Source: a virus. From it: a stretch of DNA of 20,565 nt. Location: the UHGV virus genome UHGV-0070025. One strand, written 5' to 3'. Position numbers and translations under genes: made by a program. Numbering within the stretch: position 1 is the first letter of the stretch; every line of letters starts with the position of its first letter. Of the stretch, positions 3,415 through 8,498 are shown one piece after another. A model generated the notes under the pieces. It was not told the DNA's origin. It made no database searches and was given only the letters and a program-made list of their open reading frames with translations.

Positions 3415-3490
3415 GGCCCTTTAGCTCAGTGGTGAGAGCGAGCGACTCATAATCGCCAGGTCGCTGGTTCAAATCCAGCAAGGGCCACCA
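3415..3490 (+). tRNA. tRNA with anticodon CAT (Ile2-lysidine or Met type)
   Basis: 76 nt cloverleaf: acceptor GGCCCTT/AAGGGCC, D-arm GCTCAGTGGTGAGAGC, anticodon loop CTCATAA, T-loop TTCAAAT, 3' CCA encoded. Matches the ileZ position of Stx-type phages. Confidence 0.9.
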
Positions 3491-3497
3491 TCACATA

Positions 3498-3574
3498 CCG
3501 CCATTAGCTCATCAGGATAGAGCACCAGCCTTCGAAGCTGGTTGCGCGGGGTTCGAGTCCTCGATGGCGGTCCA
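3498..3574 (+). tRNA. tRNA-Arg (anticodon TCG)
   Basis: 77 nt: acceptor CCGCCAT/ATGGCGG, anticodon stem CCAGC/GCTGG with loop CTTCGAA, T-loop TTCGAGT, CCA encoded. Confidence 0.85.
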
Positions 3575-3587
3575 TTATCTGTACCCT

Positions 3588-3664
3588 GCGTTGTTAGCTC
3601 AACCGGACAGAGCAATTGCCTTCTAAGCAATCGGTCACTGGTTCGAATCCAGTACAACGCGCCA
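3588..3664 (+). tRNA. tRNA-Arg (anticodon TCT)
   Basis: 77 nt: acceptor GCGTTGT/ACAACGC, anticodon stem ATTGC/GCAAT with loop CTTCTAA, T-loop TTCGAAT, CCA encoded. Confidence 0.9.
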
Positions 3665-3678
3665 GACTTATTTTTCCC

Positions 3679-3704
3679 GGCTCGCTTTTGCGGGCCTTTT
3701 TTTT
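3679..3704 (+). terminator. intrinsic terminator after the tRNA cluster
   Basis: GGCTCGC-tttt-GCGGGCC stem (one G.U pair) followed by T8. Confidence 0.7.
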
Positions 3705-3710
3705 AAATGT

Positions 3711-3925
3711 CTCACAATTCAGACGGTTGACAGTTGTCTGTTTTGCGGGGAGTTTGTTAAAAGAAACTGGCATGGTGAATCCCCCTGTGCGGATGGGCAA
3801 TCAGCGAGTAGGTATATGGGATAATCGCGGATTCAGGTGCTGGTACTGAATTCACCGGGAGGCACCCGGCACCATGCAATGGCACATAGCGCCACTCTCC
3901 AGCCCCTCTCCGGAGGGGCTTTTCT
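3711..3925 (+). ncRNA. candidate structured small RNA, tandem unit A
   Basis: Begins with CTCACAATTCAG then TTGACA; shares conserved blocks with unit B (TTTGTTAAAA, GCATGGTGAATCCCCCTG, CACCGGGAGGCACCCGGCACCATG); ends in terminator GCCCCTC-tccg-GAGGGGC + TTTTCT (3902-3925). No convincing ORF. Confidence 0.35.
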
Positions 3926-4114
3926 GTGCCGGATACATCACAGTTTCTGGAACCTTAGGTACTACAGTATCAGTCAGGGTGCTATATTTTCAGATGTGAT
4001 GAAAGCCTGTCAGCAGGCAGGGCGTATCGGAAATGACCCAGTAGAGAAAACGTTGACTCAGATACCGGTGCTGAGTTACCGGGAAACCGGCATCACATGA
4101 CCGCTATCCTTCCA

Positions 4115-4141
4115 GGCCCATCCGCTCCGGTGGGCCTTTTT
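4115..4141 (+). terminator. intrinsic terminator
   Basis: GGCCCA...TGGGCC stem followed by TTTTT. Confidence 0.55.
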
Positions 4142-4178
4142 ACTGCAGAAAACAGGTTCCCCGTTAAATGCTATGTTG

Positions 4179-4412
4179 CTCACAATTCAGTAAGTTGACA
4201 GTTGCCTGTCAGACTGGGCATTTGTTAAAAAAATTTCGCATGGTGAATCCCCCTGAGCGGAGGGGCGACTGGTGACGGTATAATCTCTGATTATCAAAAC
4301 GAGAATGACGCGGGTTTAGTGGCACCGGGCTGAACTCACCGGGAGGCACCCGGCACCATGTGCATGATGATACAGATACGCGGCTTTAGCCCCTCTCCGG
4401 AGGGGTTTTCTT
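4179..4412 (+). ncRNA. candidate structured small RNA, tandem unit B (paralogue of unit A)
   Basis: Same block order as unit A, 468 bp downstream; contains a perfect TATAAT at 4279-4284; ends in terminator GCCCCTC-tccg-GAGGGG(T) + TTTTCTT (4389-4412). Confidence 0.35.
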
Positions 4413-4417
4413 GTGGG

Positions 4418-4447
4418 CAAAAAAAGCCCGCGCTGGGAGACGCGGGC
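4418..4447 (-). terminator. minus-strand intrinsic terminator, back-to-back with the unit B terminator
   Basis: On the minus strand: GCCCGCG-tctcccag-CGCGGGC followed by TTTTTTT (the plus-strand A-run at 4418-4425). Confidence 0.45.
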
Positions 4448-4640
4448 GGCAAGGAATAAACAATAAAACGTGAAGTAATATTTCAGCTGGCGAATAATAC
4501 CCCATAGTAATCACTCTGCGCAACTGCGCGGTCTTTTTCGAATTGCGGGCTGTCGTCTCTCTTCTGCCATTGTCCTGTAACTTCCGGACTTCAGCCCGCT
4601 CCTTATTTTACTCACAATATTATCCCGGCCGGGAGGATTC

Positions 4641-4868
4641 ATGGCATTTAAACACTATGACGTGGTCAGGGCGGTATCGCCGTCAGACCTTGCGAAACGA
4701 CTGACACAAAAACTGAAGGAGGGCTGGCAGCCGTTTGGTAGTCCGGTGGCCATAACCCCTTATACCCTGATGCAGGCGATTGCAGCAGAAGGTGATGTGG
4801 TGGTCAGTGGTGCAACTGAGCCGGATTGGTACTACGTCATCGTACTGGCCCGGCATTCCAGGCCATAA
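4641..4868 (+). CDS. small phage protein, DUF1737-like
   Basis: 75 aa; GGGAGG RBS 5-6 nt upstream of ATG; pattern YDVV..S.SDLAKRL..KL.EGWQPFG resembles DUF1737 as I recall it (unverified). Confidence 0.6.
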   Translation: MAFKHYDVVRAVSPSDLAKRLTQKLKEGWQPFGSPVAITPYTLMQAIAAEGDVVVSGATEPDWYYVIVLARHSRP

Positions 4869-5072
4869 AAGACAGTCTGGCAGTGGGACTAAATGCACTG
4901 ACGCTGATGGATATTACCAAAAATGTAACGTATGGCGTTGAGATAGAAAGTCTGGCGCTGGAGATAAATGCACCGGCATCATCATAAAAAGTGAGCCAGT
5001 CAAATGGAAGGTATCGTTAAACTCACCGGTAGTGTCAGTGGGTCGTCTGAGACGCTTGCATGAGTTATCAGA

Positions 5073-5356: not shown

Positions 5357-5701
5357 ATGACTCAAAACTATGAACTGATTGTGAAAGGGATCCGCAATTT
5401 TGAGAATAAAGTTACGGTAACTTTAGCGTTACGGGACAAAAAACGCTTTGACGGTGAAATTTTTGACCTGGACATCTCGCTGGACCGTGTTGAAGGTGCT
5501 GCGCTGGAGTTTTATGAGGCAGCGGCCAGAAGGAGCATCAGACAGGTCTTCCTGGATGTCGCTGCCGGGTTATGTGAAGGGGATGAGCAGTCGCCGGAAA
5601 AGCGCCCCGTAATTTTAGAGGCGCAGAATGTGTGGATAACCTACAAAGGAAAGCTACCGGGAAGGATTACTGGTTCCCTGAAGACTCCGCCGAAATGGTA
5701 G
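5357..5701 (+). CDS. hypothetical protein (accessory gene inserted between holin and endolysin)
   Basis: 114 aa; GGGGAGAG RBS overlapping the holin stop (translational coupling); no transmembrane segment evident; no family recognised. Confidence 0.6.
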   Translation: MTQNYELIVKGIRNFENKVTVTLALRDKKRFDGEIFDLDISLDRVEGAALEFYEAAARRSIRQVFLDVAAGLCEGDEQSPEKRPVILEAQNVWITYKGKLPGRITGSLKTPPKW

Positions 5702-5939
5702 TTTTGCCAGCATAATTTTCTTCCAGCAATGCCGCCAGCCACTTGAAAGAATTTTGTTGTTCCTGGGACCATTTGGGGTTGCGTGATTCAAAATGAATGG
5801 ATGCCAGCGTTGGCAGCATTTGCTCCCTGGGAATTGATAAGGCCAGATGTGAAAATGCAACAGTGAGGGCATTTACATCATCCCGAAGCCTGGAAATGCA
5901 GTCGAGCAACTCCTGTAGAGAAATGGTGCTATTGTCCAT
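5667..5939 (-). CDS. hypothetical protein, convergent with and 3'-overlapping the preceding gene
   Basis: 90 aa on the minus strand; strong GAGGA RBS 6-7 nt upstream of ATG; 35-nt 3' overlap with the + strand ORF; no family recognised. Confidence 0.55.
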   Translation of the reverse strand: MDNSTISLQELLDCISRLRDDVNALTVAFSHLALSIPREQMLPTLASIHFESRNPKWSQEQQNSFKWLAALLEENYAGKTTISAESSGNQ

Positions 5940-6044: not shown

Positions 6045-6578
6045 ATGAACGCAAAAATCAAATACGGCCTGTCAGCTGCAGTTCTGGCGCTGATTGGAGC
6101 AGGCGCATCAGCTCCTCAGATACTTGACCAGTTTCTGGATGAAAAAGAAGGTAACCACACAACGGCATACCGCGATGGTTCCGGCATCTGGACCATCTGT
6201 CGGGGTGCCACGATGGTGGATGGAAAACCCGTTTTTCCCGGTATGAAACTGTCGAAGGAAAAATGCGACCAGGTCAACGCCATTGAGCGTGATAAGGCGC
6301 TGGCATGGGTGGAGCGCAATATTAAAGTACCACTGACCGAACCACAAAAAGCGGGTATCGCGTCATTTTGTCCCTATAACATTGGCCCCGGTAAGTGTTT
6401 TCCATCGACGTTTTATAAGCGGCTGAATGCTGGTGATCGTAAGGGCGCATGCGAGGCGATTCGCTGGTGGATAAAAGATGGTGGGCGCGATTGCCGCATA
6501 CGTTCAAATAACTGCTATGGACAGGTTATTCGTCGTGACCAAGAAAGCGCATTAGCCTGTTGGGGAATAGATCAGTGA
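6045..6578 (+). CDS. R: SAR endolysin (lysozyme, phage 21 R / RrrD-like)
   Basis: 177 aa; N-terminal Gly/Ala-rich weakly hydrophobic segment ([16 protein letters not shown]) typical of signal-anchor-release domains; catalytic-region motifs (EG..TAYRD..G.WTICRG) resemble T4-lysozyme-type phage lysozymes. Confidence 0.9.
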
Positions 6579-7042
6579 GCAGAGTCGCCGCGATTATTTA
6601 TGCTCTGGTTATCTGCATCATCGTCTGCCTGTCGTGGGCGGTCAATCATTACCGTGATAACGCCATCACCTACAAAGAACAGCGTGATAAAAAAGTCAGT
6701 GAGCTGAAGCAGCTGACCGCCACCATCGCTGACATGCAGCAGCGTCAGCGTGATGTTGCTGCGCTCGATGCAAAGTACTCGAGAGAATTAGCCAATGCGA
6801 AAGCTGAAAATGAAACTCTGCGCGCTGATGTTGCCGCTGGTCGTAAGCGCCTGCGGGTCAATGCCAGTTGCTCCGCAGCCGTGCGTGAAGCCACCGGACC
6901 CACCAGCGTGGATAATGCAACCAGCCCCAGACTGGCAGACACCGCTGAACGGGATTATTTCACCCTCAGAGAACGGTTGATGACGATGCAGAAGCAACTG
7001 GAAGGGGCACAGCTATACATTCGTGAGCAATGTCTCAGATAA
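6575..7042 (+). CDS. Rz: Rz inner-membrane spanin
   Basis: GTG start overlapping the endolysin stop; N-terminal transmembrane helix ([17 protein letters not shown]) then coiled-coil periplasmic domain; contains the embedded Rz1 frame. Confidence 0.85.
6795..6980 (+). CDS. Rz1: Rz1 outer-membrane lipoprotein spanin, embedded in the +1 frame of Rz
   Basis: 61 aa; lipobox LVVSAC; proline-rich mature part ([30 protein letters not shown]) nearly identical in pattern to lambda Rz1. Confidence 0.85.
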
Positions 7043-7197
7043 AAACCGGCCAAGGATAATCCGCTAAAGATTCGCCGGTGGCGAAAGAGAGCCAAGGTGT
7101 CAACCTACGCTATTACTTATGATAATGCAACAGACGAAGCGGGACATATTGGCGCATAACAAATCAGTGCAGGCTAACTGCAGGAAGAACTTAGGGC

Positions 7198-7464
7198 GTG
7201 AACGTAGAAAACCTAAGTAACGCACATTACATCTATAACGAGATGAAAGAGCTACAGCGACAGAAAGGTATACTGGAAAGTGGTGCAGGGCTTGGTGTGA
7301 CAATCCAGTCTGCCTATCAATATAGTGCTTTTCTTGAGGCCATACGCCCGCATGCAGTTGCTGAACTTAACAGCCGTATTGAGGAAAAGAAATCCGCGCT
7401 GGTTAATTTGGGTGCTTCCTTCTCTATATACGAGCATAATAAGGCGGGTTGGAAACCCGCCTAA
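7198..7464 (+). CDS. hypothetical small protein (uncertain)
   Basis: 88 aa from GTG (alternative ATG at 7243); weak RBS; the 3' end runs through the hairpin that serves as terminator for the convergent minus-strand gene. Confidence 0.3.
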   Translation: MNVENLSNAHYIYNEMKELQRQKGILESGAGLGVTIQSAYQYSAFLEAIRPHAVAELNSRIEEKKSALVNLGASFSIYEHNKAGWKPA

Positions 7465-7469
7465 AGCAC

Positions 7470-8009
7470 TTAGAAACTGCGTGGAGCTGTGGAAAGAATG
7501 GATGCCAGTTCTTCCTTCGATAAATCCCAGCTTCGATTTACAGCGTCAATTTTCTTAAACTCATCAAGCATTGCGTTATAGAGATGTTCTGTACGTGAAT
7601 GAGTATTGGCAATGGGCTGTTTCTGTTCGGGGAAGCGATCAATTTTCTGATATGCCTCAATGATACTGAAGTAATCGCATTCATTATTACCGTCGAAACC
7701 TGGGAGCTGAATTGCCCCATCATGTATTTTTAGATGATGGTCACGGACTAATTCTTTTTGCTCGTCATCACTAAGTTTCCTGAAAGCATTGGAAAGTCCG
7801 CGATACATATTCAAGACAGCAGTAACAAAATCACGATCTTCTTTACTTGGTTCGTCAACATCCAAATGTGAATATTCGGCCTTGATAACCCAATCATTAC
7901 CAGATGACACAGCATATTTAACAAGCTGTGGATCAATATCAGTTTCGATACCTAGGTGGATGGCAATGTCACATAACAAAATGGTATTGATTTTATCTTT
8001 AATATCCAT
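7470..8009 (-). CDS. hypothetical accessory protein, possibly YfbU-family (UPF0304)-like
   Basis: 179 aa; GAGGG RBS on minus strand; AT-richer than flanking phage genes; followed on the minus strand by hairpin GGCGGGTT/AACCCGCC (about 7444-7462) and a U-rich tail; YfbU resemblance is from memory of the E. coli protein and is unverified. Confidence 0.6.
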   Translation of the reverse strand: MDIKDKINTILLCDIAIHLGIETDIDPQLVKYAVSSGNDWVIKAEYSHLDVDEPSKEDRDFVTAVLNMYRGLSNAFRKLSDDEQKELVRDHHLKIHDGAIQLPGFDGNNECDYFSIIEAYQKIDRFPEQKQPIANTHSRTEHLYNAMLDEFKKIDAVNRSWDLSKEELASILSTAPRSF

Positions 8010-8147
8010 GAGTTAACCCTCTGAAGTAAAAAGTAATATCTACACCCGTTGGCTCATGAAGTCTATTGATCTGTCTCATATCAGCAGCAAATCTATTCCA
8101 TGGAGATACTCAATGCAGGTCACCTTTGATTTATATAAGGGCGAAAC

Positions 8148-8498
8148 ATGCCAGCACTAATCCCACGCGCCTGCCGTAAGCGTGGATGTGCAGGTACAAC
8201 CACAGACAGTTCTGGTTACTGCGATAAACATCGTGGCGAAGGATGGGTACAGCATCAACGCGGACTGAGCCGCCACCAGCGTGGCTATGGCTCGAAATGG
8301 GATGCCATACGTGCGCGCATACTGAAGCGTGATAATCATCTGTGTCAGAACTGCCTGCGCAATGGGAGAGCCGTTGAAGCCAGAACTGTGGACCACATCA
8401 TTCCGAAAGCTCATGGTGGCACGGATGCAGACAGTAACCTGCAGAGTCTGTGCTGGCCCTGTCATAAAGCAAAAACAGCGCGCGAACGCATCAATTGA
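8148..8498 (+). CDS. HNH homing-type endonuclease associated with the terminase
   Basis: 116 aa; N-terminal Cys cluster (CRKRGC...CDKH) and HNH core (CQNCLRNGR...VDHIIPKAHGG...NLQSLCWPCHKAK); sits directly upstream of the small terminase, as in HK97-like cos phages. Confidence 0.85.
   Translation: MPALIPRACRKRGCAGTTTDSSGYCDKHRGEGWVQHQRGLSRHQRGYGSKWDAIRARILKRDNHLCQNCLRNGRAVEARTVDHIIPKAHGGTDADSNLQSLCWPCHKAKTARERIN

Follow-up and report, generated by a model that had tools for sequence, protein, structure and literature searches.

A solo YfbU-family gene in a variable cargo slot of a lambdoid Escherichia coli prophage and its possible role in phage defence

A prophage gene that reads against the late operon encodes a 179-aa protein of the YfbU family, and it occupies, without a partner gene, a slot between the lysis and packaging modules in which related phages carry different cargo. 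By analogy with Kamadhenu, a YfbU-fold protein of Lactococcus plasmids, a role in phage defence is plausible. We give a probability of roughly 0.45 to the reading that the gene would be expressed in the lysogen and would encode a prophage-borne, single-gene anti-phage protein of the Kamadhenu type. What is new in this study is a specific, testable link of a prophage gene to an experimentally validated YfbU-fold defence gene. The YfbU-fold gene described here stands alone, is under purifying selection and lies in a slot that is classic for lysogenic conversion in prophages of E. coli and Klebsiella, so that the family can be tested in the best-equipped phage-host system. If the defence role is true, it would add a family that is missed by PADLOC and DefenseFinder in clinically important strains; if it is false, the gene is an ordinary and already annotated cargo gene.

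The cargo block between lysis and packaging

The window, by which we mean the whole stretch of 20,565 nucleotides that was analysed, comes from a lambdoid prophage of E. coli whose head is of the HK97 type. The locus is 100% identical to prophages of many E. coli chromosomes, for example that of the O7:K1 strain CE10, and also to the induced phage vB_EcoS-611R1; the YfbU-like gene is carried by induced phage particles (ON470586 and ON470583). On the left, the conserved flank of the cargo is the Rz spanin gene (6560..7042, plus strand; Pfam Phage_lysis, E 1.6e-49), in which the ORF list places an embedded Rz1-like ORF (6795-6980). On the right, it is an HNH endonuclease gene (8148..8498, plus strand; Pfam HNH, E 1.9e-16), which is the first gene of the packaging module. 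The order of the flanks by Pfam is Phage_lysozyme, Rz, HNH and then Terminase_4, the small terminase subunit of the P27 type. From the Rz stop codon to the HNH start codon extends a variable block (7043..8147) with a GC content of 0.42, compared to 0.51 for the whole window.

Cargo at the junction of Rz and the packaging module is already known and belongs to the textbooks. The sequence-only reading of this DNA had recognized such a site here and likened it to that of Bor in lambda, and comparison with relatives bore this out. In BLASTN alignments with three of them (L003, L004 and L006), homology was lost at about 7012-7042, at the Rz stop, and came back exactly at 8148, the ATG of the HNH gene. 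Relatives with an empty site have a spacer of 42 bp at the Rz-HNH junction. Other relatives have in this junction the Bor homologue iss, which lies on the minus strand, together with some 500 bp, or else they have unrelated DNA. A moron, as defined by Hendrix and colleagues, is a cargo gene that lies between conserved genes of a phage and is transcribed independently. The YfbU-like gene is present or absent among close relatives with the junctions at gene boundaries, and its base composition differs from that of its neighbours. The block at 7043-8147 fills a swappable cargo (moron) slot where the lysis and packaging modules meet.

The region had also been described as AT-richer than its flanks and as a probable independent acquisition, and we found both views supported. 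The GC content was 0.39-0.42 over 7400-8200 and about 0.50-0.55 on either side. Gene by gene, the GC and GC3 values were 0.391 and 0.339 for the YfbU-like gene and 0.453 and 0.438 for orf88, the other gene of the block, compared to 0.530 and 0.559 for Rz, 0.544 and 0.479 for HNH, and 0.514 and 0.575 for TerL in the flanks. Because both GC and GC3 of the YfbU-like gene are deviant, an independent acquisition is supported.

A 15-nt direct repeat, CCACCAGCGTGG(A/C)TA, was found in Rz (6900-6914) and in HNH (8273-8287) with 14 of the 15 positions identical. Each copy lies some 140 bp beyond the nearer end of the cargo block, off the mosaic junctions, and no other flanking repeat was found; the pair is probably a matter of chance. 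A search of Rfam with E values up to 1 gave no RNA match.

The YfbU-family protein, its neighbour gene and its transcription

The YfbU-family gene lies on the minus strand at 7470..8009, starts with ATG and has a ribosome binding site of its own, as the sequence-only reading had proposed. That reading had suggested a resemblance to YfbU (UPF0304) and had named a profile search as the check. The search agreed: PF03887, the YfbU domain of the UPF0304 superfamily, matched residues 46-172 with 46.3 bits (E 6.5e-12; gathering threshold 25 bits), and it was the only Pfam family above threshold in the protein. Precomputed annotation places PF03887 in all close homologues as well. An AlphaFold model of the protein (35 homologues) had a mean pLDDT of 90.3 and displayed the two-domain, all-helical fold of 1WPB. 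The 179-aa protein belongs to the YfbU family and has the YfbU fold. The family assignment is not new, since the gene carries the label "YfbU family protein" in RefSeq. The protein is probably cytoplasmic because it is without a signal peptide or a hydrophobic stretch; its N-terminus is acidic (MDIKDKINTILLCDIAIHLGIETD).

Two other assignments were considered and rejected. A Pfam match to the PD-(D/E)xK restriction endonucleases (Cfr10I/Bse634I, PF07832) was below threshold, and it was rejected because an all-helical fold contradicts an alpha/beta nuclease. The Bor/Iss family was the other. Bor and Iss are small outer-membrane lipoproteins, and iss is known for serum resistance. Their genes share with the YfbU-like gene the same slot, the antisense orientation and the presence/absence polymorphism. 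However, the proteins are unrelated: only YfbU passed the Pfam threshold, the acidic N-terminus is not a signal peptide, and the fold is that of YfbU without a signal sequence.

The prophage protein is not an orthologue of the chromosomal YfbU. It scored 34.8 bits with the equivalog model NF003936 of NCBIfam, for which the cutoff is 90 bits and to which the genuine YfbU of E. coli scores 274.2 bits. Both proteins have the same two-domain helical fold (UPF0304, PDB 1WPB, for the chromosomal one) and share the motifs GFDxxxExxY and Y..ML in the C-terminal domain. The identity of about 21% is restricted to this domain (hhalign probability 95.8%, BLASTP E 0.044), whereas the N-terminal 55 residues gave no sequence alignment. 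The contexts differ too, in that the chromosomal gene belongs to the conserved ackA-yfbV-yfbU-hxpA locus (L117) and the prophage gene to a variable slot between Rz and the HNH-terminase genes. The structure of YfbU (UPF0304) has been solved since 2004. To our knowledge, no biochemical function has been assigned to it, and the cell-death phenotype in E. coli and Kamadhenu are its sole functional handles.

The convergent gene of the block, orf88 (7198..7464, plus strand), is a small gene on the late strand with a GTG start. It matched PHROG 5415 over residues 1-76 (E 2e-38), a family of 276 homologues that are mostly 76 aa long. The TAA stop codon of the Klebsiella relatives (L113-L116, 4001-4231) reads ATA in the window, and orf88 runs 12 codons further, through a hairpin, to a stop codon (7462-7464) at the 3' edge of that hairpin. 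An 88-aa plus-strand ORF ending in the hairpin had been noticed before; the ORF stands, and its length of 88 aa is secondary in a family that normally has 76 aa. Judged from its homologues, orf88 is a real and independent phage gene. AlphaFold gave a generic two-helix hairpin with a pLDDT of 79.5 and low confidence in the 12-codon extension, and a comparison of this fold with the PDB gave no significant match, the best being T4 UvsY (E 0.32). In E. coli and Klebsiella, orf88 and the YfbU-like gene co-occur. However, Citrobacter phage Chris1, E. coli loci with Nu1-type terminases (L109-L112) and several virulent phages have orf88 but lack the YfbU-like gene, and ten loci (L007-L016) have the YfbU-like gene but lack orf88. 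We therefore rejected the idea that the two form an obligate convergent module, because each occurs without the other.

The hairpin between the convergent genes (7442..7462) has a 9-bp GC-rich stem, AGGCGGGUU-GGA-AACCCGCCU, and a fold energy of -15.5 kcal/mol on the plus strand and -17.4 kcal/mol on the minus strand. The minus strand offers a weak U-tail, UUAUUAUG, and the plus strand has no U-tract. The terminator scan did not call the hairpin at 7442-7462, because of this weak U-tail. The Klebsiella relatives keep the hairpin with altered stem bases, and in two homologous loci (L007 and L011) there are terminator-like hairpins directly 3' of the YfbU-like gene. A terminator hairpin at about 7444-7462 had been proposed for the minus-strand gene; the hairpin itself is confirmed, and it is likely to be a weak intrinsic terminator of that gene.

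Upstream of the YfbU-like gene, 8010..8147 is divergent from the HNH gene and has on the minus strand a Shine-Dalgarno sequence, GAGGG, at 8017-8021, 7 nt before the ATG. In an alignment of the E. coli and Klebsiella blocks, which are 88% identical as a whole, the approximately 70 nt before the ATG (8010-8080) were almost invariant. A consensus scan of the minus strand upstream of the gene found no sigma-70 promoter, and by eye only weak candidates were seen. The conserved stretch of about 70 nt may act as a promoter of an unusual kind or as a regulatory leader, and we infer that the gene has a promoter and is transcribed independently in the lysogen. As an AT-rich gene, it could be silenced by H-NS.

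Distribution, selection and the wider family

The HNH-small-terminase module was detected in 1015 of the 5426 complete E. coli genomes (in 928 with at least 80% query coverage) and the YfbU-like gene in 225, always in the same arrangement. All but one of these copies (224 of 225) covered at least 80% of the gene. The gene is accessory, being carried by about a quarter of the prophages with the packaging module and by about 4% of E. coli genomes. A conserved core gene at this position, which the sequence-only reading had named among the findings that would overturn its proposal, is not what 225 genomes against 1015 with the packaging module describe.

Homologues with 50-63% identity were found in prophages of Enterobacter, Providencia and Superficieibacter, in all cases antisense to the late genes, with the lysis cassette on one side and the gene for the small terminase subunit on the other. 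The holins, the endolysins and the terminases (of the lambda Nu1/GpA type or the P27 type) of these loci are unrelated. In Klebsiella prophages, the succession of orf76, hairpin, YfbU-like gene and HNH, with 88% DNA identity, stands behind different lysis cassettes. The position of the YfbU-like gene between lysis and terminase genes is thus conserved. The gene is also under purifying selection, with a dN/dS of 0.12 at a dS of 0.23 between E. coli and Klebsiella, and its length and motifs are kept across genera down to 50% identity. W40, D106, E110, H137 and Y144 of the protein are invariant.

A profile built from the close relatives gave 2082 representatives at 50% identity, and members of the family were found on small plasmids, in prophages and in variable islands. 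In 29 of 80 loci (L029-L108), the YfbU-family gene has before it, at a distance of about 15 bp and in the same orientation, a conserved companion gene that encodes about 167 aa (for example L044 9468-9968 and L040 9465-9968; another example is L021 6482-6988). The product of this companion matched nothing in Pfam and has a single membrane helix at its N-terminus, and the two genes look like an operon. This membrane partner was not found in the window or in the enterobacterial prophage loci. Because it is absent and orf88 does not co-vary, the prophage YfbU-like gene is solo. Other members of the family (P0224, P0112, P0186, P0062 and P0071) are longer, about 230-240 aa, with an N-terminal extension of about 55 aa. 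One of these extended forms had a sub-threshold match to a ribbon-helix-helix domain (RHH_1, 18.7 bits, cutoff 20.5), and the extended forms may be fusions to a DNA-binding domain. The subfamily of enterobacterial prophages is without the extension.

Several neighbours of the family are known or proposed to act in defence. In 6 of 80 loci (L047 10545-11228, L095 9144-9860 and four others), a family gene has as its direct neighbour a gene for an FRG-domain protein that matches PDC-S15, a candidate system of PADLOC (E down to 6e-82), and AbiD adjoins a family member on an 8-kb plasmid of Acinetobacter. In Alcanivorax sp. IL3 (L021 6482-9446), a row of four genes starts with the membrane partner and the YfbU-family gene and goes on with a homologue of PD-Lambda-4_B (E 5e-62) and a TIR effector (E 1e-45), an arrangement like that of a defence island. 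In a Superficieibacter prophage (L015 8990-10488), a Ser/Thr kinase like PD-T4-6/Stk2 and a PP2C phosphatase lie beside the YfbU-like gene in the same slot, and the lysis genes are closely preceded by a HicAB pair. The variety of partners in the wider family, namely the membrane protein and the N-terminal extension, is typical of defence modules, without being proof of defence.

We also scanned the neighbours in 80 genomes with PADLOC, comparing 150 ORFs within 2.5 kb of family genes with 150 ORFs at 6.5-10 kb. The models matched numbered 135 near and 62 far, a result that is suggestive only, as it counts models and not proteins and has no genome-wide background. A homologue in a Yersinia P2-like phage was left out of the defence-hotspot cases, its neighbours being baseplate-like. 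In PADLOC v2, no model matched the 179-aa ORF or orf88.

Possible roles of the gene, and other candidate cargo

Kamadhenu (pUCCL624_130; Grafakou et al. 2024, PMC11381338) is a 180-aa YfbU-fold protein encoded by a single gene on Lactococcus plasmids, with an experimentally demonstrated abortive-infection phenotype (PMC11381338). Phages escaped from it when their Sak-like single-strand annealing protein carried a point mutation at G22 (PMC12184496), and the replication, transcription and translation of phage DNA were not blocked (PMC13064643). The 179-aa prophage protein fits this pattern in having the YfbU fold, about 180 aa and no partner gene, and by analogy it may likewise suffice for function. 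The likeness is one of Pfam family, fold, size and single-gene architecture. There are also differences: Kamadhenu works in a Gram-positive host and is carried by plasmids, whereas the gene studied here is in an enterobacterial prophage, and anti-phage activity and escape mutants in an annealing protein are results for Kamadhenu only. A tblastn search of PLSDB with the 179-aa protein and with the family consensus gave no Lactococcus match. Kamadhenu was not among the matches listed in a profile search of a set of 5.8 billion proteins, and the cluster names of ten AT-rich representatives included no lactococcal sequence. Kamadhenu is absent from PADLOC and DefenseFinder (PMC13335696), and the lack of a PADLOC match for the YfbU-like gene is consistent with this absence.

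Of the roles considered, we regard protection of the lysogen from other phages as the most likely one, and we suggest the following course. The gene would be transcribed as its own unit against the late operon, with its own ribosome binding site, the downstream hairpin and presumably its own promoter, and its product would be a single-gene protein of abortive infection or of exclusion. By the Kamadhenu analogy, the YfbU-fold protein might stay idle until the recombination machinery of an infecting phage activates it; the trigger could be the single-strand annealing protein of that phage or the product of this protein. Once activated, it would stop the infection at a late step or kill the cell. 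When the prophage itself grows lytically, antisense late transcription through the gene would tend to silence it. Expression in the lysogen, anti-phage activity, trigger and effector step are all inferred, and occupancy of the cargo slot does not itself imply defence, because the same slot holds iss.

A broader proposal, that the solo prophage protein represents an enterobacterial abortive-infection or superinfection-exclusion system triggered by the recombination proteins of incoming phages and that the YfbU fold is a widespread immune module, is more doubtful, and we put it forward tentatively. If it is true, such a system would be present in about 4% of the complete E. coli genomes and in many Klebsiella prophages and would have been missed by current defence-finding tools. 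The module would then exist as a lone protein, as a fusion to a possible ribbon-helix-helix domain, and as one half of an operon whose other gene encodes a small single-pass membrane protein. It would also offer a rationale for the long-unexplained role of the chromosomal YfbU as a "death protein".

That chromosomal role is at the same time a point against defence, because YfbU is tied there to cell death upon DNA damage and not to phages: deletion of yfbU in E. coli abolishes the mazEF-mediated death that follows DNA damage (PMC2646832). The prophage gene might accordingly be a lysogenic-conversion gene that acts on host physiology in the manner of the chromosomal YfbU, modulating the response to DNA damage or stress, for example in the death pathway downstream of MazF. 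Survival of the lysogen or the timing of induction would then be altered. Besides the deletion phenotype, this explanation can draw on the fold and the GFD...E...Y motif common to the two proteins and on the host-fitness gene iss that relatives have in the same slot. We consider it unlikely, however. The identity to the chromosomal protein is about 21% in the C-terminal domain alone, with 34.8 bits against the 90 of the equivalog; members of the family sit on plasmids, in prophages and on islands with defence genes for neighbours and not among housekeeping genes; and the sole mobile member that has been tested is anti-phage.

The gene could instead serve the phage, in counter-defence or as an accessory protein of the lytic cycle. 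It might be a mimic that poisons the YfbU assemblies of the host or another abortive pathway, or a helper near DNA packaging. The chromosomal YfbU does form higher-order assemblies (PMC3210124, PMC11381338), which a paralogue could in principle disturb, but the identity of the two proteins is too low for mixed oligomers to be likely. The gene always adjoins the packaging module and is carried by the induced particles (ON470586, ON470583); yet it is antisense to the late operon at every locus examined, and late transcription would therefore oppose its expression in lytic growth. Moreover, it is dispensable, as empty-site relatives exist, and members of the family also occur on small plasmids that are not phages and on chromosomal islands. 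A service to the phage thus seems quite improbable to us. It is very unlikely that the gene has no current function and was carried along by mosaic recombination as a neutral passenger or as a remnant in decay. The lack of a consensus promoter upstream and the lost stop codon of orf88, which is a sign of some local sequence drift, would fit such a passenger. However, the signal of purifying selection disfavours it: the dN/dS is 0.12 at a dS of 0.23, at least 80% of the gene is covered in 224 of the 225 copies from E. coli, length and motifs are kept to 50% identity, and the 70 nt upstream hardly differ between E. coli and Klebsiella.

The window has other places of interest for cargo. Genes for tRNAs (Met-CAT, Arg-TCG and Arg-TCT) were found at 3415-3664, and the following 1.3 kb or so up to the holin region (3665-5030) has no ORF of at least 100 aa; Shiga-toxin phages carry cargo at this position. 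In the lysis cassette, a minus-strand ORF of 90 aa (5667-5939) overlaps the 3' end of the YdfR/DUF1327 gene. It matched PHROG 2411 (E 5.5e-55) and is annotated as hypothetical in a relative (L004), and its match to the anti-silencing protein Mip was far below threshold. This ORF may be a second antisense cargo gene.
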